A stretch of DNA of 26,100 nt from the NCBI GenBank assembly GCA_013153375.1, contig JAADEN010000198.1, positions 1 to 26,100 on the forward strand, written 5' to 3'. This stretch comes from Chloroflexota bacterium (GTDB taxonomy: Bacteria; Chloroflexota; Anaerolineae; Anaerolineales; DRMV01). Positions 1 to 15,272 of this stretch are shown here, piece after piece. The notes beneath the pieces are model-generated. The model made no database searches and was not told the DNA's origin. It saw only the letters and a list, made by a program, of their open reading frames with translations. A program made the position numbers and the translations under genes. Position 1 is the stretch's first letter. Every line of letters starts with the position of its first letter.

Positions 1-3000
1 CCATCACCGTGCGCAAGGTCGGATCGGCCTGTTTCAGTTGGTCGTAGGGCACGACCAGCACCCGCGGCTCGGCGCGCAGACGGGCGAAGGGCGTGCCCTC
101 GGTGGCGGGCAGGCCGAAGGGCTGCCATTCCGCGCCCGGCGCGTCCGCGGAGCGGGACGCCGCGGCCACCAGACGCACGACTTCGCGCACGGGGTCGTAG
201 ATCAAGATGCCGCCGTGCATGGCGTCGAACACGGTGCGCAAACGCACGATGGCCTCGCGCACCAGGGTCTGGAAGTCGGTGTAGCGGGAGATGGCCACGG
301 TGAAGTCGTACAGAAGTTGCAGTTGGGCCGAGCGACGCTGCACCTGTTCCAGCAGGCGCAGGTTGGAGAGCAAACTGCCCACGGCCGCGGCCGCGGTGTG
401 CACCAGGCCCCAGAAGTCTTCGCTATACGCATTGGCCCGAGCGTGCCGAAAAGCCACGACGCCCAAAGGCTCATCGCCGTACACGATGGGCACCACCAGC
501 ACGGCCGAACGGGCCTGCATGTGTTGGTCGCGCCAATGCAGGGTGTTGAACCACAGCGCGCCTTGATTGAGGAAGGCCCACACGACGGGATGCTCGGTAT
601 CGTCCAAGCGCACGGCCTCGGGCCAAGTCTCCCGCATCTCGGGATCGTGCCGTTCGGCTACGCGCACCAAGCGGTAAGGATCCTCTTCGTCCGACAAGTA
701 GAACGCGACGGCCTGGGGATGCTCCAATTCGTACAGGGCCTGGACGACCACATCCAGCGCCTCTTGCACCGACGCGGCCGCGGTGGCCTGCGCCAGGGCG
801 GCCTGCAAACGCTGCTGCTCGCCCAGCAGCACCCGCAGCCGGGCCACCAGGCGCGCGTTGAGCAAGGCCACGCCCAAGGAGTCCACCAGGAGGCGCAAGA
901 CGGTAATGTCGGCCTCCAAAAAGGCCCGCGGCCGTTCGGCGTGCAGGTCCAACACGCCGAACAGTTGCTCGCCCAACAAGATGGGCAGGACCAGGCGCGA
1001 GCCGCCCGGCGGCACGGGCGCGCTGTCGGCGTACGCTTGCATGGCCTCGGGCGTGTTGAGGAGCACGGGCTCCCGACGGCGCGCGGCGACGGCCAAAGGA
1101 TCCTCGGACCGCAAACTCACCTGATGGGCCTTGGGAGTGAGCAGCGCCTCCGCCTGATCGCCGGCCGCGGCGTGGGCTTCCAGTTGCAGTTGGTTGGCCT
1201 GATAGACATACAAGACCGCCCGCCCCAGGGGGAAACGCTCCAGCAGGGCCCGCACGAACTCGCGCAACAAGGTCTCTTCGTCCCAGGTGCGCAAGGTGCG
1301 GCCCAGTTCCACCGCGGCTTGCAGCCACGCGGTGCGCCGCTGGGCCACATAGAACAAGCGGGCGCTTTCCAGGGCCAGGCCCAGGCGGTCGGCCAGGTCG
1401 CGCAACATCTGGCGCTCGGCTTCGTTCCAGGGTTCGGCGCGGCGCAAGTGCAGCACCGCGATGGGTTGTTCGCGCACCGCGATGGGCAATCGCAGTTCGT
1501 GCAAATCGGGCTCGCTGGCCGGCACCGTGGCCTGGGCCGTGGGCGGCAGGGCTTCGAACTCGCCCCGCGCGGTGCGATGGAAGACCTGGGCCGGAGCGAC
1601 GCGCAGGAATTCCTCCCACCCGCGGCGGGACAGTTGCCGCTGCACCCAATGCAGTTCGTCCAGGGCGCGTTCCATGCGCTGGAGCAAGAACGCGTTGTCC
1701 AACGCGACGGCCAGTTGGTCCGCGACGACGCGCAGGGTGGTCACATCCTCAGGCGTGAAGGCGTTGGGCTGGGTGCTTTGAATGTCCAGGACGCCCAGGA
1801 TGCGGCCGCCCACCCGCAACGGCAGGGCCATTTCGGAGCGGGTCAACGCGAGTTCGGGAGGCCGCACATAGTGCGGGTCCTCCTCGACATCCAGCACGAT
1901 GCGCGGGTTGCCCGTGCGGGCGACGAAGCCGACGACGCCCTCCTGGCCGACGCGCAGCCGGTGATGGCGCTCCAAGAGGCGTTGGCCGCCCTCGCTGCTG
2001 GCGGCGCGCAACTCCATCCACTCGCCCGTCTCGTCGAGCAGGAAGATGCCCACATGGTAGAAGCCGAAACGCTCGGCGATCAGGCGGGCGGTGCGCTCCA
2101 AAAGGAGGTCCGGCGAGCGCAACGAGGTGAGCAGGCGGGCCACATCGGCCGCGGCCTGAATCTGGGCCACCCGGCGCTGCAACGCGTAGGTGCGCTCGGC
2201 CACCCGCTGCTCCAGGGTGAGTTGTGAGGCCTGCACCCGCTCGGCCATGACATTGAAGACCCGCCGCAGATAGGTCACCTCGTCCTCGGCCCGCTCGTCC
2301 ACTTCCAACCGGTAGTTGTAATCGCCCTCCGCGAAACGCAGCACGCCCTCGGCCGTGTCTTCCAGAGGGCGGATGATGCGGCGGACCACGAAGCGGGCGA
2401 AGAGCCAAACCAGGATGAGGGACACCAGCGCGGTCATCGCGGGCTGAAACAGAATGCGGCTCAGGGCCCGCAACATGCGCTGCAGGGTGACATCACGCCG
2501 CGCCTCGAAGCGCTGCAGCAGAAAACGCTGGGTGAGGTGATATTCGTTGTACACATCGAAGAAGCGCCGAATCAAGGCGTTCGCGTCGTTCCAGCGGCCA
2601 TGATTGACCGCCTGGGTGATCTCCTGAATCAAGCGATTGATCTCGCGCAACAGGGCCCACGAACGGGCCAGGGGCTGCAACAGGGGATCGTCGGGAGGCA
2701 GGGCGTCGAGGAAGGCCTCCAACTCGCGGCGGTTCGATTCCAGCGCGCTGTGCAGCGCCACCAACTGCTCGCTCCACAAGATCTGCTGGGAGCGCGTCAC
2801 CTCGGGATCGTCCAGAGAGGCTTGCACATCGCGCAGCACATGGCCCGCGCGTTCGATCAAGGCGATGGTCTCGTTGGTCAGGAGCAAGGGCTCGATGTTC
2901 TTGGAAGTGCGGAGCACGAGGGTGCGCAGGCGGAACACCTGATAGCCCACCACCACGCCCAACAGCACCACGACCAGGGTGATGGCCAAGGCGAAATGCC

Positions 3001-3064
3001 GCACCGTGCGGCGCAGCACCTGGCGCGGCTGAGGTACGGTCAAGGGACGCTCGTCCAGGGTCAT
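1..3064 (-). CDS. Membrane sensor C, partial (C-terminus beyond left edge, >=1021 aa): TM - helical extracytoplasmic domain - TM - HAMP - GAF - half-GAF - further GAF repeats
   Basis: Not in ORF track. Manual translation from ATG at 3064 (RBS GGAGGTGA, ATGA overlap with upstream stop) stays open to position 1. Begins MTLDERPLTVPQPRQVLRRTVRHFALAITLVVVLLGVVVGYQ. TM2 ILFQPAMTALVSLILVWLFARFVV. HAMP IIRPLEDTAEGVLRFAEGDYNYRLEVDERAEDEVTYLRRVFNVMAERV. GAF FGFYHVGIFLLDE...TRSEMALPLRVGGRILGVLDIQSTQPNAFTPED. Later GAF-type strands LVLPILLGEQLFGVLDL and LVVPIVYGDEPLGVVAF. Confidence 0.9.
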   Translation of the reverse strand, partial: MTLDERPLTVPQPRQVLRRTVRHFALAITLVVVLLGVVVGYQVFRLRTLVLRTSKNIEPLLLTNETIALIERAGHVLRDVQASLDDPEVTRSQQILWSEQLVALHSALESNRRELEAFLDALPPDDPLLQPLARSWALLREINRLIQEITQAVNHGRWNDANALIRRFFDVYNEYHLTQRFLLQRFEARRDVTLQRMLRALSRILFQPAMTALVSLILVWLFARFVVRRIIRPLEDTAEGVLRFAEGDYNYRLEVDERAEDEVTYLRRVFNVMAERVQASQLTLEQRVAERTYALQRRVAQIQAAADVARLLTSLRSPDLLLERTARLIAERFGFYHVGIFLLDETGEWMELRAASSEGGQRLLERHHRLRVGQEGVVGFVARTGNPRIVLDVEEDPHYVRPPELALTRSEMALPLRVGGRILGVLDIQSTQPNAFTPEDVTTLRVVADQLAVALDNAFLLQRMERALDELHWVQRQLSRRGWEEFLRVAPAQVFHRTARGEFEALPPTAQATVPASEPDLHELRLPIAVREQPIAVLHLRRAEPWNEAERQMLRDLADRLGLALESARLFYVAQRRTAWLQAAVELGRTLRTWDEETLLREFVRALLERFPLGRAVLYVYQANQLQLEAHAAAGDQAEALLTPKAHQVSLRSEDPLAVAARRREPVLLNTPEAMQAYADSAPVPPGGSRLVLPILLGEQLFGVLDLHAERPRAFLEADITVLRLLVDSLGVALLNARLVARLRVLLGEQQRLQAALAQATAAASVQEALDVVVQALYELEHPQAVAFYLSDEEDPYRLVRVAERHDPEMRETWPEAVRLDDTEHPVVWAFLNQGALWFNTLHWRDQHMQARSAVLVVPIVYGDEPLGVVAFRHARANAYSEDFWGLVHTAAAAVGSLLSNLRLLEQVQRRSAQLQLLYDFTVAISRYTDFQTLVREAIVRLRTVFDAMHGGILIYDPVREVVRLVAAASRSADAPGAEWQPFGLPATEGTPFARLRAEPRVLVVPYDQLKQADPTLRTVM

Positions 3065-4773
3065 GCCGCATCACCTCCCGCCGAGGGCGGGGCGCTCTCG
3101 GAATCTTCCCCGGCGACCTCGTCGTGACCACCGCCGAAGACATCCAAAACCAGCCAGGCTTCTTGAACCTGGAAGGCCTCGCTCAGGCCTTCCAACGCGG
3201 TGCGGGCCAACAGTTCGAAGTCGAGGGCCGAAGCGAAACGGGACGCGAGTTCGTTTTGGATCTCCTCGCGATGCGCGTATTGCTGCACTTCGTCGAGCAG
3301 GCGGGCCACCATGAGGTGGTTGGTCAGCAGGGCGATCATGCCCTCCAGCAACTCGGCCTCGCCCTCCTGCCAGGGCCGCGCGCTGACCACCCGCACCTCG
3401 CCGATCTTCTGGCTGTACAGCCGAATCGGGAAGACCAGGGGCGTGGTCGGCTCCTCGCCGCCGCGCAAGAGATCGGTGCCGCCCGTCGCGGACGCGTCGC
3501 GGCGCACGACCAGGCCCTGGGTCAACTCGCCCCAGGTGCGGCCCAGCAGACGCTGCTGCAACGCCTCGATCTCGCGCAGTTGATTTTGCAGCCGCTGCAC
3601 CATGAGCACATTCGACAGGGCCAGGGCCACGCTGTTGGCCAGGGTCTGAAAAGTGCGCAGGTCTTCCTCGTCGAACGCGTCGGCCCGATCGGATTGGATG
3701 GTCATCGCGCCCAAGACCTCGCCGCGCGCGACCAGGGGCAAAGCCAGTTCCGAGCGCGTGTAGGGCAGATACGGGTTCTCGTAGTGGGTGGGGTCTTGCT
3801 GCACATTCAGCGCCACCCGAGGTTCCCGGTGGGTGATGGCCCAGGCGATCATGGAGGTGCCGCCCAACGGCAGCCGATACCCCTCGGCCACCATGCGCTG
3901 GCCGGCCTGCCCGCTGCCGGCCCGCAGGACCGCGAACTCGAAGTTCTCGTCCACCAGGAAGATGCCCACATAATACAGGCCAAACTGGCGCTGAATCTGC
4001 TCGACGACCTCTTCCATCAACTGCTTGGGGTCGGAGATGGTGCCCAAGGTGTTGACGATCTCGCTCGCGGCCCGAATCTGGCGCACCCGACGCCGCAGCA
4101 GCCGCTCCCGGTCGCTCAACCGTTGGCGCTCCTGCTCCAGAATGCGCGTCAACTGCACCGTGTCTTCCAGGGTGATCTCGAACCGCTTCTGGATGAAATG
4201 CAACAAGCCCACGATGGCGATGCTGACGATCACGAACGCGAGACCGGCGTAGATCCACTGGGTGGGGCCCAACAGGATGTGTTCGGGCACACCGGCCAGG
4301 CGTGACAGGGTCCAGCCGCGCTCCAACACCAGGTAACTGGTGGCGAAGTACAGTCCAATGGCGAAGAGCACATTGAAGACCAGCGCCCAGCCTGTGAGAA
4401 AGACCGCGCCGGCCAAAATGGCGAACACGAAGGACAGGTTGGCCTCGCTCAAATCGCCGTAGAACAGGGCCGCGTACACGGCCATGAGATATACCATGCC
4501 CAGCAAGAAGGCCACCCGCCACGAATACGGCACGGGCAGCAACGCCCGTCCCCAACTCAAAAGAAAGGTCGCGGTCAGCAGCCCCAGATAGATCCACCGC
4601 AAAATCGGGAAGTTCCAAAAGCGCCACAAGTAAGCGGCGAACAGCACGGGCAGCGCCAGGCCAGCCAGCGTCAAAAAAGTAGCGAGCAGACGCTCACGAT
4701 ACAGTTGCATCTGCTGGCTAAAAGTCGCGGTCGAATAAGGCGCGCCGTCCCGGCTCAAGCGCGGATAGGTCAT
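3061..4773 (-). CDS. Membrane sensor B (570 aa): about 6 TM input region, coiled coil, GAF, half-GAF, C-terminal GAF-like stub; no output domain seen
   Basis: ORF track. Hydrophobic segments aa ~28-195. GAF FGLYYVGIFLVDE...TRSELALPLVARGEVLGAMTIQSDRADAFDEED. No H-box, GGDEF, EAL or HD motif seen. ATGA overlaps at both ends. Confidence 0.9.
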   Translation of the reverse strand: MTYPRLSRDGAPYSTATFSQQMQLYRERLLATFLTLAGLALPVLFAAYLWRFWNFPILRWIYLGLLTATFLLSWGRALLPVPYSWRVAFLLGMVYLMAVYAALFYGDLSEANLSFVFAILAGAVFLTGWALVFNVLFAIGLYFATSYLVLERGWTLSRLAGVPEHILLGPTQWIYAGLAFVIVSIAIVGLLHFIQKRFEITLEDTVQLTRILEQERQRLSDRERLLRRRVRQIRAASEIVNTLGTISDPKQLMEEVVEQIQRQFGLYYVGIFLVDENFEFAVLRAGSGQAGQRMVAEGYRLPLGGTSMIAWAITHREPRVALNVQQDPTHYENPYLPYTRSELALPLVARGEVLGAMTIQSDRADAFDEEDLRTFQTLANSVALALSNVLMVQRLQNQLREIEALQQRLLGRTWGELTQGLVVRRDASATGGTDLLRGGEEPTTPLVFPIRLYSQKIGEVRVVSARPWQEGEAELLEGMIALLTNHLMVARLLDEVQQYAHREEIQNELASRFASALDFELLARTALEGLSEAFQVQEAWLVLDVFGGGHDEVAGEDSESAPPSAGGDAA

Positions 4774-7700
4774 TCCTCCTGCTCCTGAGAAGCGTCCCCG
4801 TCGGAGGGCGCGGGCTCCGTCGCGGAGAAGAGTTCAATTTCCACCTGATACGCCTCGAACAGGCGCTGAATCTCGGCCGCGCTGAACTCCAGCATGTTGC
4901 GCACATCGGTCAGACCGGCCAGACGCTGGGCAAAAGTGCGCAACGACTGCTCGCGCTCGATGCGCCGCCGCAAGCGCCCTTCCTGCTGGATGGCGTACAT
5001 CACACCGGCCAGGCCCTGGCTCAAAGTGAAGAGGTAAGAGCGATGCTCTTCCGAAAAGGCGCGCGGGCGCTCCCACTGCACCAAACCGATGACGCCCAGC
5101 CGCTGACGCCCCAAAACCACAGGCACGCCCAGCCATGATTCGGGGATGCGGGTCGCGACCCGGACGGCCTTGCCGATTTGGGCGATGACCTTGTGCTTGT
5201 CGCTCAGCAAGAGCGGCTGTCCGCGCTCGGCCACCTGTTGGATGAGCGCCTGTTCGGCCGGGGTCACGGTCGTGTGATAATACCGCTGCCCATAAGGGTA
5301 CACGAAGGTGTAGGCCGGGTTGCCGCCGCGGTACGAAGCCACGAAGAAGTCGGCCTCGGGCAAATGTTTTTGCAGCAGATCCCAGGCCCGCAGGTAAAGG
5401 TGCCCTTCGGAGGGCGCTTCGGGCGCGTACTCCAGAATCTTCTGCACCACTTCCCACACCGAGAGGCGCTGCTGCATGTCCACATAGAGGAAAGCCCAGC
5501 CCACCAACTCGGTGAACAACTGCTCTCGGGCCCGATCCAGCGGCATTTCGCTCTCGCCGCTGCGGGTGCCGCGGGCCCAGACCGCGAAGAGACGCCCTTG
5601 CGGGTCGCGCACGGGGTACAGGCCCAGGGTCTGCCAATTGTAGCGCCGCGCCAGCGCCGCGATCCCCAGCCCCTCGCCCTCTTCCACTACCAAATGGGTC
5701 GGCCCTTCGCTGACCAGGGAGAGCAGATTCCGCACCGACGGCGTGGTCTGCTCTTGCTCCTGCTGCGGATAGGCCACCGACCACACATCGGTCAACTCGG
5801 GCACGGGCACCAGCAAAATCCCTTCGGCCTGGGCCTTGGTCAGGCATTCCACCAGCGCGGGGATCAAATAGGAACTGTGGCTCAGGGTGGGCAGACGCTG
5901 CAACAGGCAGGACATGACCCGTTGCTTTTCTGCCTCCAAAGCCTGACCGCGCTGCAGGTGCACATATTCGAGGACCAGAGACAACTGGCGGGCCAGCAAG
6001 CGCAGCGCGAAGCGATCGTACTCGCCCGGCAAAGTGGGGTCCACGCCGCCGACGAAGAGCACCCCCAGCAGGCGGCGCGGCGTGGTCAGCGGCACGCCCA
6101 CCATCCAGGTCAACGGCGGCGGCAGGCGCAAGGACTGGCCCTCTTGGTTGGACCACATCCGCATGTCCAAGGCGCGGCCCACCTCCGAGGCCAAATGCGG
6201 CTCGAAGGAGCGCAGGGCCAGGTTGACGGCCTGAGGCAGCCGCGAGACCCGTCCCGCCGGCTGCCAGCCCTGGTCGGGCGCGTGCCACAAGCGCAGCGAC
6301 AGGTACGCAAAGCGCGGGAAGCGTTCGCTCATCCGCTGCAGGATGGTCTGCAGCACCTGGGACGCGTCCGGCCCGCGCTCCAGCGCGACGGTGGCCATGG
6401 TCACGACCAACTGCACCTGCTGGGTGCGCAGGTTCAACTCGCGCTCCATGGTAGCGTAAGTCTCCTGGAGTTGGTCGGCCAGGTCGTTGAAAGTGTAGGC
6501 CAGGAGGGCCATCTCGTCGTTGCCCACCACCTCCGCGCGGCGATCCCAGCGGCCCTGGGCGAAGGCCTCGGCCACGCTCACCAGATCCTGCACCTGGCGC
6601 AGCAGCCGCCGCCCGAAGAGCACGGCCACGCCCAAAGTCAGCGCGAGCAACGCAGCCCAAACCAAAAGCCGCAAGCGGAGCAGTTCCAACACCCCCGCGA
6701 CCGCGGCCTGCTCGGGCATGGTCACCACCAAAGCCGCTTCCAAAGGATCCACCCAGCCGGCCAGGCCCACAATTCCGGGCAGGTCCACCCACCACAGGGG
6801 GAAGGAGGTTTGCACATCGGTGTGGGTGTAAGGGACCAGACGCTGCACCGGCCCCAGCCCCCAGCGGGCCAGCAGGGCGTAGAGCCCGCGATAACGGCCC
6901 AACAAGACCGTGTGCTGCGGCTTCGAGCGCAGCGAGGCCACCACATGGCTCAGTTGCGGCCACGGCGTGGGCCGCAGGGTCTGCATGGAAGCGTCCCAGG
7001 TATAGACTGTGCCGTCGGAGGTGGCGAACGCGGCCCGGCCCTGGGGCAGCCAACGGGTCATGCGCACCAGGGTCTTCTGGATCATCAGGTCCGACGAAAT
7101 GCCCACCAGCACGCCCCGAAAACGGCCCTGCGCGTCGTAAAGGGGATACGCGCTGGCGACGGCCAACGCGTCGTCCGTGGGGCGGGTCTGCGGCACGGGA
7201 TAGACCCAATGCTGGGCCTTGCGCGCCTGCAGCGTCTCCCAATGGGCCGCCAGGGAGGGGCCGAAAGGCACCTGATCCAGCGAGCGGCCCTCCCAGTCGG
7301 TCTGAGTCGCGACCAACACCCGCCGGTCAGGGGTGACCAACGCGAAGTCAATGTAGAGCGGCGCGCCCACCTCGATGCGGGAGCGCTCGAAAAGGCGGTC
7401 GAAGAGGGTCAGGCGGGCGTTGGCGAAGCGGCGGCTCTGGGTGGACGCGGTCCACAGGGTGTGCAGCGCCTCTTGCACATCCTGGGTGTTGAGGGCCACA
7501 TCCATGCGCGCGCTGCGCTGGACCATCCACTCGTTGAATTCCATGAAGGCCGAGTCCAGCACCAACTCTTCGCGGCGCAGGTTCAATTGCACGGCCTCTT
7601 CGTAGGAACGGTAGTAGAACCAGATGCCCTCGATGGTCAACGGCAGCAGGATGCTGACCAGCAGCAACGCCACCAGGCGCAGCACCAAACGCCGCCGGAA

Positions 7701-7871
7701 GCGTCGCCGGGGGCGTCCAGACGCGCGCGCCTCGGCCGCGTCGCTCGGGCCCGACGCGGGTTCCTCGTCAAACGCCAGATCCGCGAAAGCCTCGGTGTCG
7801 GCCGGAGGCACCGGCGGCACCGCCTCGGGATCACGGCTTTCGGGATCAGGAGGAACAGCGGGCATACTCAT
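4770..7871 (-). CDS. Membrane sensor A (~1033 aa): TM - Cache-like extracytoplasmic domain - TM - HAMP - three GAF-like domains - C-terminal GAF-like stub; no output domain seen
   Basis: ORF track gives 4770..7880 (GTG). ATG at 7871 preferred because the GTG lies inside the GAGGTG RBS. Cache-like strands DFALVTPDRRVLVAT and AYPLYDAQGRFRGVLVG. HAMP QVQDLVSVAEAFAQGRWDRRAEVVGNDEMALLAYTFNDLADQL. GAF motifs MVGVPLTTPRRLLGVLFV and SWLGVPVVLGRQRLGVIGL...RAFSEEH. Confidence 0.88.
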   Translation of the reverse strand: MSMPAVPPDPESRDPEAVPPVPPADTEAFADLAFDEEPASGPSDAAEARASGRPRRRFRRRLVLRLVALLLVSILLPLTIEGIWFYYRSYEEAVQLNLRREELVLDSAFMEFNEWMVQRSARMDVALNTQDVQEALHTLWTASTQSRRFANARLTLFDRLFERSRIEVGAPLYIDFALVTPDRRVLVATQTDWEGRSLDQVPFGPSLAAHWETLQARKAQHWVYPVPQTRPTDDALAVASAYPLYDAQGRFRGVLVGISSDLMIQKTLVRMTRWLPQGRAAFATSDGTVYTWDASMQTLRPTPWPQLSHVVASLRSKPQHTVLLGRYRGLYALLARWGLGPVQRLVPYTHTDVQTSFPLWWVDLPGIVGLAGWVDPLEAALVVTMPEQAAVAGVLELLRLRLLVWAALLALTLGVAVLFGRRLLRQVQDLVSVAEAFAQGRWDRRAEVVGNDEMALLAYTFNDLADQLQETYATMERELNLRTQQVQLVVTMATVALERGPDASQVLQTILQRMSERFPRFAYLSLRLWHAPDQGWQPAGRVSRLPQAVNLALRSFEPHLASEVGRALDMRMWSNQEGQSLRLPPPLTWMVGVPLTTPRRLLGVLFVGGVDPTLPGEYDRFALRLLARQLSLVLEYVHLQRGQALEAEKQRVMSCLLQRLPTLSHSSYLIPALVECLTKAQAEGILLVPVPELTDVWSVAYPQQEQEQTTPSVRNLLSLVSEGPTHLVVEEGEGLGIAALARRYNWQTLGLYPVRDPQGRLFAVWARGTRSGESEMPLDRAREQLFTELVGWAFLYVDMQQRLSVWEVVQKILEYAPEAPSEGHLYLRAWDLLQKHLPEADFFVASYRGGNPAYTFVYPYGQRYYHTTVTPAEQALIQQVAERGQPLLLSDKHKVIAQIGKAVRVATRIPESWLGVPVVLGRQRLGVIGLVQWERPRAFSEEHRSYLFTLSQGLAGVMYAIQQEGRLRRRIEREQSLRTFAQRLAGLTDVRNMLEFSAAEIQRLFEAYQVEIELFSATEPAPSDGDASQEQEE

Positions 7872-7890
7872 GCCGTACACCTCACCCGCA

Positions 7891-7932: not shown

Positions 7933-8367
7933 TCACAATTCCCACACCGCTTCGCCGGCCAAGATGCGCCGAATCTGCTCCGGGAAGCGGTCAGGGTCCA
8001 GGGGTTTGCCGATGAAACCGTCAAACCCGGCCGCGCGCGCCTTGCGCATCTGCTCCTGGCTGGCCTCCGCGGTCACCGCGACCACGGGCACATCCTTGAG
8101 GTGCTCCGAAGCGCGGATCTTCTCCAGCGCCTCGTAGCCGCTCTCGTAGGGCAAGCGCAAATCCATGAGAATCAGATCCAGACGCGGCATGCGCCGGGCG
8201 AACTCGACCACCTCGTAGCCCGAGGTCTTCCACTTGGTCTCGATGCCGATAAAGCCCAGCATCCGGGCGATGAGGACGAAGTTGGCGACATTGTCTTCCA
8301 CCACCAAGACCAACGGTTTGGCCTCGGCATCGCTTTGGGTCGTGGCGGCCTGCGCGTCGAACCTCAT
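7933..8367 (-). CDS. Single-domain response regulator RR2 (CheY/DivK-like receiver, 144 aa)
   Basis: Acidic pocket VVEDN, phosphoacceptor LDLILMDLRLP, Thr in AVTA, Lys in FIGKP. No output domain. Confidence 0.95.
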   Translation of the reverse strand: MRFDAQAATTQSDAEAKPLVLVVEDNVANFVLIARMLGFIGIETKWKTSGYEVVEFARRMPRLDLILMDLRLPYESGYEALEKIRASEHLKDVPVVAVTAEASQEQMRKARAAGFDGFIGKPLDPDRFPEQIRRILAGEAVWEL

Positions 8368-8384: not shown

Positions 8385-8753
8385 CTACAAATAACGCCGC
8401 AATTGGGCGACGAAAGTATCCACATCAATGGGCTTGGTGATGTAGCCCACACACCCTGCGGCCGCACAGCGCTGCGGCGTATCGCGCAGCACATCCGCGG
8501 TCAACGCCACCACCGGGATGTCGCCGTAACGCGGGTGGGTGGTCAACTGATGGGTGAGGGTGAAGCCGTCAATGCCGGGCAAATGCAAGTCCATCAGAAT
8601 GAGGTCTGGGCGCTGCGTTTGCAGGATCGCCCACATCTGCTCGGCGTTGGCCGCCTCGAGCAGTTCGAAACCCTCGGCCATGAGCAAGCGCCGAATGAGC
8701 ATGCGATTGTCCGCGTTGTCCTCTACATATAAAACGCGCTTCTTTCCGGCCAC
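8385..8753 (-). CDS. Single-domain response regulator RR1 (CheY/DivK-like receiver, 122 aa)
   Basis: YVEDN, PDLILMDLHLPGIDG, IPVVALTA, YITKP. GTG start preceded by GAGGA. Confidence 0.95.
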   Translation of the reverse strand: MAGKKRVLYVEDNADNRMLIRRLLMAEGFELLEAANAEQMWAILQTQRPDLILMDLHLPGIDGFTLTHQLTTHPRYGDIPVVALTADVLRDTPQRCAAAGCVGYITKPIDVDTFVAQLRRYL

Positions 8754-9109: not shown

Positions 9110-9136
9110 GGCCACCGAGCGGGGTCTTTTATTTTT
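9110..9136 (+). terminator. Terminator-like element inside the 5' leader of the ABC operon
   Basis: GGCC-A-CC-GAGC-GG-GGTC bulged 6-bp stem followed by TTTTATTTTT, 20 nt upstream of ATG 9156. Confidence 0.45.
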
Positions 9137-9155
9137 GCCTCTGGAGAGCGGCAAG

Positions 9156-10175
9156 ATGATCAAAGCGCGCGGCCTCACCAAATACTACGGTCGGCGTCTC
9201 GCCATCGACCACCTGACTTTCGAAGCCCACAAGGGAGAAATCGTGGGCTTTTTGGGTCCCAACGGCGCGGGCAAGACCACCACCATGCGCATCCTCACCG
9301 GCTACATGCCGCCGTCCGACGGCGACGCCTGGGTGGCGGGCTACCATGTGGTGGACGAGTCCCTGGAAGTGCGGCGTCGGGTGGGCTACCTGCCCGAAAA
9401 TGTCGCCCTCTACGACGACATGACCGTGTGGGACTACCTGCGCTTCATGGGCCAGTTGCGTCAGGTGCCCGACCTGGACGAGCGCATCGCGGAGGTGCTG
9501 GAGCGGGTCAACCTGCTGGAGCGCAGCGAGAGTTTCATCGGCAGCCTCTCCCGGGGCATGCGCCAGCGGGTAGGACTGGCCCAGGCCATCCTGCATCGGC
9601 CCGAAGTGCTCATCCTCGACGAACCCACCATGGGCCTGGATCCCGCGCAGCGGGTCGAGGTGCGGGACCTCATCCGCGAGATCGGCCAGGAGCACACGGT
9701 CATGCTCTCGACGCACATCCTCTCCGAAGCGCAGGAGTTGTGCGACCGGGTGCTCATCATCAACGAAGGCCGCATTCTGGCCGAGGACACGCCCGAAGAG
9801 CTGGAGCTGCGGCTGCGCGGCGCGCAGCGGGTGCGGCTGCAGGTGAGCGGCCCGGCCTCCGCGGCCGAGTTGCAAACCCGCCTGGCCGCGCTGCCCGGCG
9901 TGTTGCAGGTGCACGCCGCGGACGCGCAGCACCTGGAGGTGGAGCTCGCGCCCGACGCGGGGCGCGACCTGCGCCCTGTGCTGGCCCGCGCGGTGCTGGA
10001 TGCGGGCTACGACCTGCACGAGATGTGCACCGTCTCCCTCTCGCTGGAGGACATCTTCTTGCAACTCATCCGCGAAGAGGGCGCGAGCGACCAAGAGGCC
10101 GCGGCTGCGGAGCCCTCGGCCACCACCGAGGCCGCATCGTCCCATCCCGCGTCCGAAGCCGACGAGGAGGCCTGA
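9156..10175 (+). CDS. ABC transporter ATP-binding protein (GldA/DrrA-like)
   Basis: Walker A GPNGAGKTT, signature LSRGMRQR, Walker B VLILDEPT, H-loop LSTH. ATG at 9156 follows GGAGAG and is preferred over the track start at 9135. Confidence 0.95.
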   Translation: MIKARGLTKYYGRRLAIDHLTFEAHKGEIVGFLGPNGAGKTTTMRILTGYMPPSDGDAWVAGYHVVDESLEVRRRVGYLPENVALYDDMTVWDYLRFMGQLRQVPDLDERIAEVLERVNLLERSESFIGSLSRGMRQRVGLAQAILHRPEVLILDEPTMGLDPAQRVEVRDLIREIGQEHTVMLSTHILSEAQELCDRVLIINEGRILAEDTPEELELRLRGAQRVRLQVSGPASAAELQTRLAALPGVLQVHAADAQHLEVELAPDAGRDLRPVLARAVLDAGYDLHEMCTVSLSLEDIFLQLIREEGASDQEAAAAEPSATTEAASSHPASEADEEA

Positions 10176-10178
10176 CCC

Positions 10179-10925
10179 ATGCGCACGGTATGGATCATCG
10201 CCCGCCGGGAGTTCCGGCGCTATTTCACCAGCCCGGTCGGTTACCTGGTGTTGTTCCTGTATCTCTTCATCCTGGGGCTCATCGTCAACAACAGCCTGCA
10301 GCAGGCCTACGCGTTCAGCGTGTTCCAGGGGGCCCCGCCGCCGGGGGCCGACATCGTCATCGGCCCGATGCTCACCCTGCTGGTGTTCTCCATCCCCGCG
10401 CTGACCATGCGCCTGCTGGCCGAGGAGCAGGCCAGCGGCACCCTGGAGTTGCTCCTCACCGCGCCCGTGCGCGATTGGGAACTGGTGGTCGGCAAGTGGC
10501 TGGGCGCGTTCTTGTTCGTGGTGGTGCTGTTGGCGCTCACTCTGATCTATCCCCTGGCGCTGCACCTGCTCACCGAGCCGGGGCTGGACTGGGGGCCGGT
10601 CATCAGCGGCTACCTGGGCCTGCTGCTGGTCAGCGCGGCGCTGTTGGCCCTGGGCGTGGCCGTGTCCGCGTTGTTCCGCAGTCAGGTGGCCGCGTTCGTC
10701 GTCACCCTGGCCCTGTTCCTCTTCCTGTGGATGATCAGCAGCCTGGCCTCGGCCGGGAGCCCCAGCGAGGGCGTGCTGCGCTATCTGGATTTCGGCCATC
10801 ACTTCTACACCTCGTTCTTCCGCGGGGTCATTGACCTGCAAGGCGTGGTGTACTACCTCAGTGTGACCGCGTTCGGCCTGTTCGTCGGCACGGTCATCAT
10901 CGAAAGCCGGAGGTGGCGCGGATGA
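10179..10925 (+). CDS. ABC-2 type permease (GldF-like)
   Basis: IARREFRRYFTSPVGY, LTMRLLAEEQASGTLELLLTAPVRDWELVVGKWLG, about 6 TM helices, FGHHFYTSFFRGVIDL. Confidence 0.92.
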   Translation: MRTVWIIARREFRRYFTSPVGYLVLFLYLFILGLIVNNSLQQAYAFSVFQGAPPPGADIVIGPMLTLLVFSIPALTMRLLAEEQASGTLELLLTAPVRDWELVVGKWLGAFLFVVVLLALTLIYPLALHLLTEPGLDWGPVISGYLGLLLVSAALLALGVAVSALFRSQVAAFVVTLALFLFLWMISSLASAGSPSEGVLRYLDFGHHFYTSFFRGVIDLQGVVYYLSVTAFGLFVGTVIIESRRWRG

Positions 10926-12493
10926 ACCCGACGAAAACCTGGCGCACTTGGCTTCCGTGGGTGGCGTTGGGCCTGGCCGTGGTCGGCGCGCTGGTCGCGG
11001 CCGGCGCGTTCTTCATCCTACGGGCCTTCGACACCCCCGTGCGCGTCGGCCTGGCCGTGGCGCTGGTGGGCCTGGCCGCGTTCGTGTACCTGGAACCCGA
11101 GCGGGTGCGCCGCTGGCTCACCGGCCGAGAGGCCCGCTACGGCAGCAACGCGCTGGTGCTGTCCCTGGCCTTCATCGGCATCTTGGCCGCGCTCAACTAC
11201 CTGGCCAGCCTCTACCCCCAGCGCTGGGACCTCACCGAGGACCGCCGCAACACCCTGGCCCCTGAGATCCAGGAAGTGCTGCGGGCCCTGGACGAACCCG
11301 TGACCGCGTACGCGTTCTACTCGGCCAACATCAATCGGGACTACGCGCGCGAGGTCCTGGACAAATTCGCGCTGGCCAGCGAGGGCAAGTTCACCTACAA
11401 GTTCGTGGATCCCATCGCCAACCCCGCGCTGGCCCAGCAATACGGCGTCACCCGCGACGGCACGGTGGTGCTGGTCATGGGCGACCGCCACGAGCAGGTC
11501 CTCTTCCTCTCGGACGAGGAGATCGCCAACGCGCTGGCCCGTCTGATGCGGCCCGAGGAGCGGGTGGTGGTCTTCGTCACCGGCCACGGCGAAGGGGACA
11601 TCGAAACCCTGGGCGAAACGGGCTACTCCCTGCTCAAGGACGAACTCACCAACCGCAACTTCACCGTGCGCACCTGGAGCCTGCCCGCGGAAGGTTCGCT
11701 GCCCGAAGACGCGGATGTGGTCATCTTCGCGGGGCCGACCCAGCCCTTCACCGACAAGGAGCGCCAGGTCATCCAGGACTACCTGGCCAACGGCGGCAGC
11801 GTCATCTTCCTGTTCAACACTTCGGTGGAAGGCGCGGCCGAGCCCGACGCGGACCTGCAGGCCTACCTGGCCGACCAGTGGTTCGTCCAGGTGGACGACA
11901 CGGTGGTGGTGGACACCTCGTCGCCCCAACAGCCCCTCATTGCGGTCGGCATTCCCACCGCGCGGCACCCTGTGACCCAGAAGTTGGCCGGGCTGGTGGT
12001 GCTCTTCCCCGTGGCCCGCAGCGTGCGCGCGCTGGACGGCGCGCCCGCGACCCTCAGCGTCGAGGAACTGCTGCACACCACCGACCGCGCCTGGGCCGAG
12101 ACCGACCTGGCCGCGTTCACCACCTCCACGCCCGAGGGCGCGCAGGTGGCCTACGACGAAGGGGAAGATCTGCCCGGGCCCGTGCCGTTGGTGGTGGTGG
12201 CCCACGACACCCTCACCGACGCCCGCATCGTGGTCGTCGGCGACGCGGACTTCGCCCGCAACGGCTTCTACCAGGCTTACGGCAACGGCCTGTTGCTGCT
12301 CGACGCGGTGGACTGGGCCGCGGGTCAGGAGAACCTGATCACCATCACGCCCAAGCCGCAAACCCAGCGCTACCTCAAGCCCCTGGCCGGTTACGGCTTG
12401 AGCGCGCTGGCGCTGACATCCATCTGCTTGCTGCCCGGTGTGGTGCTGGTCATCGGCGGCGTGGTGTGGTTCCGTCGCCGCATGCGGAGGTGA
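10922..12493 (+). CDS. GldG-family ABC auxiliary component (ABC_transp_aux-like)
   Basis: N-terminal TMs, RWDLTEDRRNTLAPE, FVDP motif, VVFVTGHGEGD, IFAGP, RIVVVGDADF...GNGLLLLDAVDW, C-terminal TM. ATG 10922 overlaps the permease stop (ATGA). Confidence 0.88.
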   Translation: MNPTKTWRTWLPWVALGLAVVGALVAAGAFFILRAFDTPVRVGLAVALVGLAAFVYLEPERVRRWLTGREARYGSNALVLSLAFIGILAALNYLASLYPQRWDLTEDRRNTLAPEIQEVLRALDEPVTAYAFYSANINRDYAREVLDKFALASEGKFTYKFVDPIANPALAQQYGVTRDGTVVLVMGDRHEQVLFLSDEEIANALARLMRPEERVVVFVTGHGEGDIETLGETGYSLLKDELTNRNFTVRTWSLPAEGSLPEDADVVIFAGPTQPFTDKERQVIQDYLANGGSVIFLFNTSVEGAAEPDADLQAYLADQWFVQVDDTVVVDTSSPQQPLIAVGIPTARHPVTQKLAGLVVLFPVARSVRALDGAPATLSVEELLHTTDRAWAETDLAAFTTSTPEGAQVAYDEGEDLPGPVPLVVVAHDTLTDARIVVVGDADFARNGFYQAYGNGLLLLDAVDWAAGQENLITITPKPQTQRYLKPLAGYGLSALALTSICLLPGVVLVIGGVVWFRRRMRR

Positions 12494-12499
12494 GGCGCC

Positions 12500-13138
12500 A
12501 TGATTCGCCGCAGCACATGGATGGTCATTGCCTTGTTTGCGGTCCTGGCCGGGCTGGCCTGGTGGGCCCGGGAACAGAAACAGGCCGCGCCCGAAGATCA
12601 GGCCGAAAGCGAACCCACGGCCACGCCCATGCCGCGGCTGCTGCCCGACCTGGAGCCCGCGGATGTGGAGCGCATCGTGCTCGAAGAGCCGGCCACGGGA
12701 CGGCGGGTCGTGCTGGTGCGCGTGCAGGCCACGCCCACGGCCGAGGCCGAGGGCACACCCGCCCCGCCCGAGGCCGCGGAGCCCCAATGGCGCGTGGAAG
12801 AGCCCGCGGACGCCGAGCCGCCCGAGGCCTGGCGCGTGAACGGCGCGCTGGAAAGCCTGGTCTATGCCCGCATTCTGGCCACCCTGCCCGCGGATACCGA
12901 CCCGGCCACCGTGGGCCTGGCCGGCCCGGCTCAGCGCATCCTCCTGCAAACCCGGGATGGCCGCACCATAACCTTGTGGATCGGCGTATCCACGCCGCTG
13001 CAAAATGGTTACTACTTACGGGTGGACGAAAAGCCCGACATCGTGGCGGTAGGACAATATGGCATTGGTACGCTGTGGGAACTGCTGGACGAGATCGCGC
13101 CTCTAACTGCGACGCCCACGCCGTCACCAACGCCCTAA
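12500..13138 (+). CDS. DUF4340-like membrane-anchored extracytoplasmic protein
   Basis: N-terminal anchor (TWMVIALFAVLAGLAWW), DVERIVLE...WRV...GL..P...ITLWIG..TP..NGYYLRV pattern. Fourth gene of the Gld-type module. Confidence 0.7.
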   Translation: MIRRSTWMVIALFAVLAGLAWWAREQKQAAPEDQAESEPTATPMPRLLPDLEPADVERIVLEEPATGRRVVLVRVQATPTAEAEGTPAPPEAAEPQWRVEEPADAEPPEAWRVNGALESLVYARILATLPADTDPATVGLAGPAQRILLQTRDGRTITLWIGVSTPLQNGYYLRVDEKPDIVAVGQYGIGTLWELLDEIAPLTATPTPSPTP

Positions 13139-13187
13139 AAAATGCATCCAACATAAGGTTGCACCCCAAGGGGTGAGGATGGATAGG

Positions 13188-13216
13188 AAGACAACCGGCA
13201 ATTTTTGATCTACGAT
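13188..13216 (+). promoter_or_regulatory. Putative promoter of the sigma factor gene
   Basis: AAGACA-N17-TACGAT with an AT-rich spacer, about 80 nt upstream of ATG 13299. Confidence 0.45.
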
Positions 13217-13298
13217 AGAAGCGAGGGCCCGCCCCAGGGTCGTCCTTGCGCCCGGGCGCCCCGCGAGTTCGATTCTTTTGAGACGAGGGCAAGGCACG

Positions 13299-14501
13299 AT
13301 GATTGGCGAAGAATTCCTTTATGAAGAAGAATTCTCGGCCGTGGCTCAGTTGGTCGAACTGGGCCGCGAAAAAGGGTATGTGACTTACGACGACATCCTC
13401 CAATTCTTCCCCAAGATCGAAGACGGGGATCTGGATCAGCTGGAGGAGATTTTCGCCGCGCTGATCGGCGCGGGCATCGCATATCTGGAAGACGAACCCG
13501 GCGAAGAGCCCAGCGACGAAGAGTTGCTGGAAGAAGAGGAAGAAACCCCCAAGCCGGCCAAACCCGCGGACGACGAGGACTACCTGGCCAACATTGACAC
13601 CGATGACATGATCGGCCTCTACCTCAAAGAGGTGGGCCGCATCCCCTTGCTGACCGCGGAACAAGAAGTGGAACTGGCCAAGCGCATCGAGGCCGGGCGG
13701 ATGGCGCGCGCCGAGTTGGCTCGGGGCAAGGTCAGCCCCAAACGCCGCGAAGAACTGCGGCGCATCATCGAAGACGGCTGGCGGGCCCGCGAACAACTCA
13801 TCATCGCCAACTCCCGCCTGGTCATCAGCGTGGCCAAGAAGTACATCGGCCGGGGCGTGCCCTTCCTGGACCTCATCCAGGAGGGCAACATCGGCCTCAT
13901 TCGGGCCACCAAGAAGTTCGACTATCGCCGCGGGCACAAGTTCAGCACCTACGCCACCTGGTGGATCCGTCAGGCCGTCACCCGGGCCATCGCGGACCAG
14001 GGCCGCACCATCCGCGTGCCCGTGCACATGGGCGACCAGATCAACAAACTGCTGCGCACCCAGCACCAGTTGACCCAGCGCCTGGGCCGCGAACCCACCA
14101 TCGAGGAACTGGCCAAGGAGTTGGGCATTCCGCCCAAGAAGGTGGAGTACATGATCCAGGTGGCCCGGCATCCCCTCTCGCTGGAGATGCCCACCGACGA
14201 CGACGAGAAGTCGGTGCTGGGCGACTTCATCAAGGACGAAGACGCGCAGGCCCCTGACGAGAACGCCATCCAGGCCCTGCTGCGGGAGCACCTGGAAAAA
14301 CTGCTCAACACCCTGCCCCCGCGCGAGGTGCGCATTCTGCAGTTGCGCTACGGCTTGCTCGACGGCAAGCCCTACACCCTGGAAGAAGTGGGGCGCAAGA
14401 TGGGCATCACCCGCGAGCGGGTGCGGCAAATCGAAGCCCAGGCCCTGGCCCGGCTGCGTAAACCCGAGATTCAACAGCAACTGCGGGAATATCTGAAGTG
14501 A
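13299..14501 (+). CDS. rpoD: RNA polymerase sigma70 factor, RpoD/SigA family (possibly a paralog of the housekeeping sigma)
   Basis: Region 1.1 ([12 protein letters not shown]), 1.2 ([21 protein letters not shown]), 2 ([12 protein letters not shown]...[54 protein letters not shown]), 4.2 ([20 protein letters not shown]). ATG 13299 preferred over the track start at 13278. Confidence 0.9.
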
Positions 14502-14507
14502 GACGCC

Positions 14508-14533
14508 GGGGGCGATGCGGGCGCATCGCCCCC
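14508..14533. repeat. Perfect inverted repeat between the sigma gene and maf
   Basis: GGGGGCGATGCG-GG-CGCATCGCCCCC, 12-bp arms, no U tract on either strand. Confidence 0.8.
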
Positions 14534-14549
14534 AACGCTTGTTCCGACC

Positions 14550-15203
14550 ATGTCCACCGTAGCCTCCTGTCGTCTGCTCTTGGCCTCGGGCTCCCCGCGG
14601 CGCCGCGAACTGGTGCGCTGGCTGGGTTACCCAGTGCGCGTCCAGGTGCCTCAGGTGGATGAAAGCCTCCGCGCGGGCGAGGCGCCCGCCGCGTATGTGA
14701 CGCGCCTGGCCCGGGCCAAGGCCCTCGCCCTCGCGCCCCAGGCCGCGGCCGACGAAATCGTCCTGGCCGCGGACACGGTGGTGGTGGACCGCGGCCGCAT
14801 CCTGGGCAAACCTCGAGACGCCGCGCACGCGGCCGCGATGCTGCGCGCGTTGCGCGGCCGCGCCCATCAGGTGCTCACGGGCTTCGCGCTGCTCTGGCCG
14901 GCCCGCGACCGCGCCCACAGCGAGGTCGTCACGAGCACCGTGCACATGCGGGACCTCAGCGACGCGGAAATCCAGGCCTACATCGCCAGCCGCGATCCGC
15001 TGGACAAAGCCGGCGCTTACGCGGTCCAAAACACCACCTTTCGGCCCGTCGCGCGGGTGGAGGGCTGCTTCGCCAATGTGGTGGGTTTGCCCGTGTGCGC
15101 GGTCGCGCGGGCCCTCATGGCCTGGGGCTGCCCGCGCGTGCGCGGCATCGTCCCACGCTGCGCGCGGGCCTTCGGGTACAATTGTGCCAGCGGTATTCCT
15201 TAA
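14550..15203 (+). CDS. maf: Maf-family nucleoside triphosphate pyrophosphatase (YhdE type)
   Basis: LLLASGSPRRREL, IVLAADTVV, ILGKP, DKAGAYAVQ, NVVGLP. The R/V/Q positions match the YhdE subfamily. Confidence 0.93.
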   Translation: MSTVASCRLLLASGSPRRRELVRWLGYPVRVQVPQVDESLRAGEAPAAYVTRLARAKALALAPQAAADEIVLAADTVVVDRGRILGKPRDAAHAAAMLRALRGRAHQVLTGFALLWPARDRAHSEVVTSTVHMRDLSDAEIQAYIASRDPLDKAGAYAVQNTTFRPVARVEGCFANVVGLPVCAVARALMAWGCPRVRGIVPRCARAFGYNCASGIP

Positions 15204-15272
15204 GAAAAGGAACTTCGCCAGGCAGCCCGGACCTCTGCGCAGGTACGCGCTGCCCCTGGAACGGATGGAGCC

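Follow-up and report, generated by a model that had tools for sequence, protein, structure and literature searches.

A recurrent GAF-derived C-terminal stub in output-less membrane sensors of Anaerolineae, a candidate receptor end-module

Why should two dissimilar membrane sensors, encoded next to each other, stop at the same point of an unfinished domain? The question is raised by the first 26.1 kb of contig C30 (JAADEN010000198.1; this whole stretch is referred to below as the window), which belongs to a Chloroflexota metagenome-assembled genome (MAG) of 1.72 Mb, 240 contigs, and 79% completeness, and which holds sequence also present in a hydrothermal-vent metagenome run. The minus strand of the window carries, in this order, two genes for stand-alone receivers and three translationally coupled sensor genes, A (4770–7880), B (3061–4773), and C (2–3064), and the A-B-C gene order is conserved among relatives. 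A preliminary description of this DNA had claimed that A and B stop at an equivalent point of an incomplete GAF domain, and the translations do end exactly as quoted there: both finish with a stub of 46 residues, equal to the first third of a GAF domain (α1-α2-β1), followed by a variable acidic tail. We find that the stub is a C-terminal element of fixed length, under purifying selection, predicted to be helical, and embedded in a conserved operon context, and that hundreds of comparable Anaerolineae sensors carry it.

The stub of A spans residues 973–1018 (4827–4964, minus strand) and consists of a helix continuing the last helix (α5) of the preceding GAF domain, a second helix, and a short strand-like segment; the stub of B spans residues 499–544 (3142–3279, minus strand). 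Both were delimited with AlphaFold2 (AF2) models and with a 46-position profile built from the C-termini of B homologues, which in the genome search matched A at 4830–4964 and B at 3142–3279 (62.5 bits). Scored within the genome of the window, the profile yielded 56.7 bits for B and 31.1 bits for A, the matches lying 26 and 19 residues, respectively, before the end of the frame, and at most 13 bits for every internal GAF start. When A, B, and all sequences at least 45% identical to either were removed from the profile, B (32.8 bits) and A (16.2 bits) still ranked first and second among the 14,127 six-frame open reading frames (ORFs) of the genome, with 9.9 bits for the best internal GAF start; the second rank at so low a score marks A as a divergent member of the family. 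Only profiles relate the two stubs, and their direct comparison by BLASTP returned no significant similarity (E = 0.29). Stub and tail taken alone (A 965–1036 and B 495–570) matched no Pfam model even at an E-value of 10, and neither stub amounts to a complete GAF domain (~130–150 residues; PF01590, PF13185, or PF13492), the chain ending 5–45 residues past β1. Homology of the fragment to the N-terminal α1-α2-β1 of GAF domains is evident from the profile, from the helix pattern of the AF2 models, and from the alignment of the C-termini of A and B, each to the junction between GAF4 and GAF5 of C. Both proteins fall into the working family that we defined by a gap-free stub of ~46 residues, located at most 70 residues from the stop codon and preceded by a GAF-type α5.

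Is the shared end point a recurrent property? Orthologues of B, 545 to 615 codons long, were found in all 22 searched genomes of the family to which the window belongs, and the matches end at about residue 541–550, where the stub itself ends. Among 5.8 billion proteins searched, 368 relatives of B were retrieved, the best 120 of which were used for the statements on architecture and alignment. Essentially all of these 120 end in the stub, although — as five front architectures show — they begin differently (MASE11-GAF, PAS-GAF, dCache-HAMP-GAF, CHASE-HAMP-GAF, and a 937-residue multi-GAF form). The alignment of their last 110 residues contains zero gaps in the stub columns, and the information content drops right after the final Leu of the stub. 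Six GAF genes without an output domain follow one another on an Anaerolineales chromosome of 4.4 Mb, and all six, five of them outside the profile training set, are stub-ended, with matches of 32–63 bits located 6–27 residues before the stop.

The preliminary description had proposed a profile of the stub and a count of its C-terminal occurrences as a check, and the count favors a recurrently terminal element. Across 80 loci from species-representative genomes labeled Anaerolineae, Anaerolineales, Anaerolineaceae, or Chloroflexota (Chloroflexi/Chloroflexia), all 165 matches of at least 35 bits end within 70 residues of the stop (median tail, 14 residues), as do 27 of the 29 matches at 25–35 bits; internal GAF starts in the scored Anaerolineae genomes do not exceed 18 bits. 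The distribution in the phylum is patchy, with a stub match at an E-value of 1e-5 or better in 29 of 201 genomes. In one family of the window's order, all 13 sampled genomes carry 5–14 stub matches within a single ~20-kb locus, beside one kinase.

Gene C seemed to break the rule. It was described as continuing into a full GAF domain where A and B end, which is correct for that position and fails as a contrast, because full-length C orthologues in genomes G002, G003, G013, and G009 end in the stub as well (in G002, at residues 1087–1132 of 1176). The exception is an artefact of the contig end, which cuts C, leaving its 5′ part only.

Conservation within the proteins points in the same direction. 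Among six genus-level orthologues of B, mean amino acid identity is 72% in the stub, 61% over the whole protein, 80% in the full GAF domain, and 20% in the tail; the corresponding values for three orthologues of A are 88%, 69%, 79% (last GAF domain), and 26%. The recurrent C-terminal position, the fixed length without insertions or deletions (indels), the excess of stub identity over that of the whole protein, and the drift of the tails bear out the earlier proposal that the stub is a selected element and no product of random decay. The same end is present in more than 100 independent assemblies. Frameshift errors at the ends of A and B had been named as a possible source of the pattern; an independent assembly of the vent run, assessed on assembled contigs, spans 2900–4916 with a single contig that differs by nine substitutions and by no indel, further contigs extending to 5100. 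Over the A stub (4887–4977), this assembly consists of several 60-base contigs with a summed depth of up to ~100 and no indel, a fragmentation that points to strain variants or to cross-mapping between paralogous stubs. A continuation of the GAF domain hidden in another frame was considered and rejected, since B and C start at ATGA overlaps with the preceding gene and begin with membrane segments.

The tails behave differently from the stubs. That of A (residues 1019–1036; 4773–4826, minus strand) and that of B (residues 545–570; 3064–3141, minus strand) are variable, acidic, and predicted to be disordered, with a predicted local distance difference test (pLDDT) score below 50 in AF2 (~38–50 for B). 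The last codons of A hold the Shine-Dalgarno sequence AGGAGGA (4774–4780) of gene B, the ATG of which (4771–4773) overlaps the TGA of A (4770–4772); likewise, the last codons of B hold GGAGG (3074–3078), the Shine-Dalgarno sequence of C, seven bases before the ATGA overlap between the ATG of C (3062–3064) and the TGA of B (3061–3063). Translation of A, B, and C should accordingly be tightly coupled, and the arrangement accounts for the terminal Gly, Glu, and Asp residues. In 199 distinct stub-ended genes, the tails are 3–61 residues long (median 15), rich in E, G, P, A, S, and D, and net negative in 153 cases; a Shine-Dalgarno-type motif lies within the last 18 nucleotides of 111 of these genes, and 93 show an NTGA overlap. 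Part of the acidic composition is thus imposed by the start signals of the next gene.

What does the stub look like? In AF2, both stubs form a helix-turn-helix (pLDDT 62–80 for B and 81–85 for A), in which α5 of the preceding GAF or half-GAF domain runs unbroken into the first stub helix and, after a 3-residue turn, is followed by a second helix of 15–16 residues. The helices span model residues 165–210 and 214–228 in A; in B, one reaches residue ~515 and the next covers 519–534. Their lengths and spacing match those of the full GAF domain of B (helices at model residues 2–34 and 40–55, strand at 59–65). The helix-helix-strand architecture with a disordered acidic tail put forward in the preliminary description is accordingly recovered in its helices and its tail, and not in its strand, which is absent from the AF2 monomers. 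Directly before the stub, B carries a half-GAF (residues ~440–498; 3280–3456, minus strand), predicted by AF2 as a β-hairpin (strands at model residues 237–243 and 246–253) plus a helix starting at 263; a counterpart of this module is present in C at residues 524–570. B 217–492 and C 286–570 are 35% identical, and the alignment stops immediately before the B stub. The last domain of A is a true GAF domain in the AF2 model, with a Z-score of 16 to the GAF domain of PDE5A.

To set the stub against GAF starts in general, we relied on a library of 1.84 billion cluster representatives, in which 9,311 proteins match the profile at an E-value of 1e-3 or better; the cluster names carry no taxonomy. 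As the summed score used for ranking let giant multi-GAF proteins dominate the best 150 of the 9,311, per-domain scores were recomputed. In the multi-GAF proteins among these 150, internal matches of 15–43 bits, spaced ~175 residues apart, open full GAF domains, and 42–47 of the 150 carry a C-terminal stub with 45–74 bits per domain. Outside this lineage, stub-like sequence is therefore not exclusively C-terminal. The stub is thus a specialized, usually terminal derivative of a GAF subtype and no unrelated fold. Several proteins have unusual layouts. P0136 (366 residues) and the last 330 residues of P0172 each contain two strong stubs, 112–117 residues apart, in a repeating half-GAF plus stub arrangement where a linker of 12–14 residues joins a stub-like segment to a half-GAF farther along the same chain. 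P0276 (381 residues) combines a LuxR/CsgD-type helix-turn-helix, apparently after a partial receiver, with a GAF domain and a terminal stub, which indicates that the stub is not restricted to proteins without any other output. P0275, a protein or fragment of 77 residues, contains little beyond the stub.

The strand segment separates the 2 kinds of GAF start. When 253 distinct terminal stubs were set against 545 internal GAF starts, the strand of the stub proved to follow the pattern V-x-I-[RQH]-L-[GN], with hydrophobic residues at positions 41, 43, and 45 and polar ones at 42, 44, and 46 (S/T, R/Q/H, and G/N), whereas β1 of full GAF domains reads V-x-I-[FY]-x-[FY]-D, in which positions 44 and 46 are aromatic and Asp comes next; the consensus of the first GAF domain of B, LYYVGxFLVDE, is hydrophobic on both faces. 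Given the strict alternation, one face of the stub strand should be exposed to solvent. Such an amphipathic strand fits a lone strand on a helical hairpin or a small pocketless sheet, unlike the central strand of a full GAF domain.

Where, then, could the output of these receptors leave the protein? By Pfam, A contains no HisKA, HATPase, or GGDEF domain, and no kinase, cyclase, or DNA-binding domain was found in A, B, or C; a sensor histidine kinase core (HisKA/DHp plus HATPase_c) was likewise not detected by Pfam in A, B, or the full-length C orthologue of G002. None of A, B, and C matches the MCPsignal model of methyl-accepting chemotaxis proteins (MCPs), with which they have only HAMP in common. 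The conserved Anaerolineae operon comprises two receivers, 3 to ~14 stub-ended sensors, a ParA-like ATPase, one soluble hybrid kinase, and a PALP-receiver enzyme. The window holds the receivers and A, B, and C, and the downstream part would lie beyond the contig end; the rest was seen in the genus relative G002 and in G082. In G002, C is followed by a ParA/MinD-type ATPase, a soluble hybrid kinase (GAF domains, HisKA, HATPase, and receiver), and a PALP-receiver fusion enzyme; the ATPase gene (L014:12743–13588) fills an apparent 770-bp gap between C and the kinase, and its start overlaps the stop of C. In the complete genome G082, these three genes likewise close the operon, behind about 12 stub-ended receptors, with the ATPase gene (L100:15785–16573) between the last of them and the hybrid kinase. 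Five of the six kinases examined start with a basic N-terminal peptide followed by a half-GAF without a preceding α1-α2-β1, as in P0006 (residues 1–185; G002), L017:2251–6909, and L100:12670–15819. The starts are rich in Lys and Arg (MSKKKK.. or MTSKRRRK..), and the half-GAF (hairpin, Trp, and α5), which scores 23–42 bits against a half-GAF profile at residues ~100–250, follows ~100–220 residues on. The operon at L019 has a stub-ended sensor, yet its kinase lacks the N-terminal half-GAF. At the same locus, a Methyltransf_19 gene (L019:12811–13644) stands between sensor and kinase instead of the ParA-like one.

Known systems offer partial parallels. Tandem-GAF proteins (PDE5A, 3mf0/3lfv; PDE6, 8ufi/9cxh; PDE2A, 3ibj; CyaB2, 1ykd) resemble the stub in their N-terminal α1-α2-β1 and connecting helix, and in the PDE6 chains, the stretch that covers GAF-A and the beginning of GAF-B aligns with the GAF domain and stub of A, the second stub helix included (model residues up to 216–243). 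Unlike in GAF domains, the chain of the stub ends after β1, leaving no sheet, pocket, or α5, and β1 is amphipathic. Among described cases, GAF-only accessory proteins that bind and regulate a separate histidine kinase come functionally nearest. One is NreA of Staphylococcus, with the kinase NreB. In Streptomyces, the kinase-less GAF protein CvnF8 is reported to form a stable complex with CvnA8 and to stimulate autophosphorylation of the kinase (PMC13343842). Like the sensors studied here, CvnF8 and NreA are GAF proteins without an output of their own that are encoded beside a histidine kinase; they differ in being small, soluble, single-GAF proteins, one-to-one with the kinase and without a stub, whereas the present proteins are large membrane receptors, 3–14 per kinase, with a putative kinase contact. 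The architecture that comes closest, by analogy, is that of chemoreceptor arrays, in which numerous MCPs sharing a conserved hairpin tip join CheW and CheA, and which ParA-like ATPases such as ParC or PpfA position. The likeness lies in receptors of diverse input that share a membrane-distal end and in a locus with one kinase, a ParA-like ATPase, and stand-alone receivers; in contrast to such arrays, no MCP signaling domain, CheW, or CheA was found in the proteins and loci examined, and the shared end is derived from GAF. That stub-ended receptors might form arrays is pure conjecture by analogy.

On balance, and with only somewhat more belief than doubt, we favor the following interpretation: the stub is a selected end-module of GAF origin, autonomous in itself, and provides both the dimer tip of the receptor and a surface for docking. 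The module would comprise ~46–52 residues, with a helix continuous with α5, a second helix folding back, a short amphipathic strand, and a disposable acidic tail. It would prolong the dimeric helical spine and turn back on itself in a hairpin covered by the strand, so that two hairpins could form a small bundle at the membrane-distal receptor tip, in the manner of their counterparts in GAF dimers. A dimerizing role of α1 and α2 is plausible in view of bacteriophytochromes, in the dimers of which the equivalent GAF helices make up the six-helix dimer bundle. Because all paralogues of one operon keep the tip while their inputs differ, the tip may serve as a common contact surface between receptors of different inputs and a shared downstream machinery.

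Several points weigh against this interpretation. The AF2 models, although computed with alignments, are of single chains, and what we infer is that the stub forms a dimer tip, that it docks, and onto which partner; moreover, the "β1" segment is coil in both monomer models. Mean-field direct-coupling analysis of 357 distinct half-GAF-plus-stub tails (effective number of sequences, 273; 10 column shuffles) ranked the pairs hairpin-α5, α1′-α2′, and α2′-strand highest, with only 1 pair above the shuffle maximum in what is an underpowered analysis; the couplings do not rise above the column-shuffled controls and support no contact map. Without its relatives in the profile, the A stub scores 16.2 bits and is a weak member of the family, the comparison of amphipathic strands mixes lineages, most internal starts coming from other multi-GAF families, and dS exceeds 1 (saturation), which renders dN/dS rough, so that regional amino acid identity was used instead.

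An unlikely alternative that nonetheless deserves a hearing is that the stub completes a half-GAF in trans, the best candidate being the N-terminus of the soluble kinase, to yield a three-stranded mini-GAF that would physically couple receptor to kinase. The kinase N-termini with a half-GAF lacking α1-α2-β1 (5 of 6) are what it would predict, P0136 and P0172 show that stub and half-GAF can exist as one unit in cis, and an amphipathic β1 would suit a small sheet with one solvent-exposed face. However, half-GAFs also stand directly before full GAF domains in C and in the kinases, where β1 belongs to a sheet of its own and no free stub is needed; each kinase faces 3–14 receptors; and the kinase of the L019 operon has no half-GAF to offer. 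In its broadest form, which we consider doubtful, each of up to ~14 receptors would contribute the opening third of a GAF domain and the single soluble kinase or a neighboring receptor the complementary last third, in an assembly positioned by ParA. If true, receptors and kinase would be coupled by a principle that differs from that of classical two-component sensors and also from that of MCP-CheW-CheA arrays.

It is rather improbable that the stub is a structural cap only, closing and stabilizing the dimeric helical spine while the output leaves through the GAF faces, HAMP, or the membrane part. The stub always continues a GAF-type α5 as one helix, and its conserved residues lie mostly in the hydrophobic seams of both helices, as a cap would require; yet many GAF proteins end past α5 without one, and paralogues of differing input within one operon all retain the module, which is conserved like GAF domains or better, a constraint that exceeds the usual need of a passive cap. 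Very unlikely, in turn, is a permuted mini-GAF in cis, in which the stub strand of B-type proteins would pair with the preceding half-GAF hairpin. The half-GAF does adjoin the stub in B and most homologues, but A, C, and the 937-residue family have a full GAF domain before the stub, AF2 predicts a continuous α5-α1′ helix and no strand pairing, and the best hairpin-strand coupling ranks 69th of 5151 in the underpowered analysis. Finally, a relic or artefact through random truncation, MAG frameshift errors, or decaying genes, for which only the fragmented state of the MAG speaks, is refuted by the end shared among independent assemblies, the selection on the stub, the ATGA overlaps and membrane starts of the next genes, and the indel-free vent-run assembly.

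No Pfam or NCBIfam model covers the stub, whether stubs or whole proteins are searched, and no description of the module was found in the literature searched on Anaerolineae GAF proteins and MASE11. The 46-position profile provides a searchable signature that marks a large family of kinase-less receptors, among output-less sensors that are usually dismissed as fragments or annotated as "GAF domain-containing protein." It pinpoints 46–52 residues as the most probable exit of receptor output and makes it testable how many inputs converge on one kinase without adaptors of the CheW/CheA type. More generally, truncations at domain boundaries can be selected modules, which is relevant to annotation pipelines that discard partial domains.

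The remaining features of the locus are as follows. The two receiver genes heading the operon (8385–8753 and 7933–8367, minus strand) match Pfam Response_reg with E-values of 2e-26 and 3e-20, and a receiver pair likewise heads the stub-sensor arrays at L018. Gene A, starting from GTG at 7880, encodes a membrane sensor of 1036 residues (the database copy begins 3 codons later) with a Cache-like periplasmic part, HAMP, and several GAF-like domains; Pfam matches HAMP at residues 421–473 and GAF at 866–958, the Cache-like stretch being weak and below the Pfam cut-off. Protein B (570 residues) combines a multi-pass membrane part, for which its homologues carry PF20969 (MASE11-like), with one full GAF domain, the half-GAF, and the stub. 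The full GAF domain (residues 248–386; 3616–4032, minus strand) matches Pfam GAF, GAF_2, and GAF_3 (E-value of 1e-18), is modeled by AF2 with pLDDT above 94, and has Foldseek matches to solved GAF domains. The part of C within the window encodes a transmembrane segment, a helical sensor, HAMP, a GAF domain, a half-GAF, and further GAF domains, with Pfam detecting HAMP and four GAF stretches; B 227–396 additionally aligns to C 575–744 (E-value of 2e-10). Upstream of the operon, two long minus-strand ORFs, 9129–10841 (570 codons) and 12525–17267 (1580 codons), have no Pfam match and may be shadow frames of plus-strand genes in this DNA of 67% GC content, such as the gene at 10913–12493 for an ABC-transport auxiliary protein.

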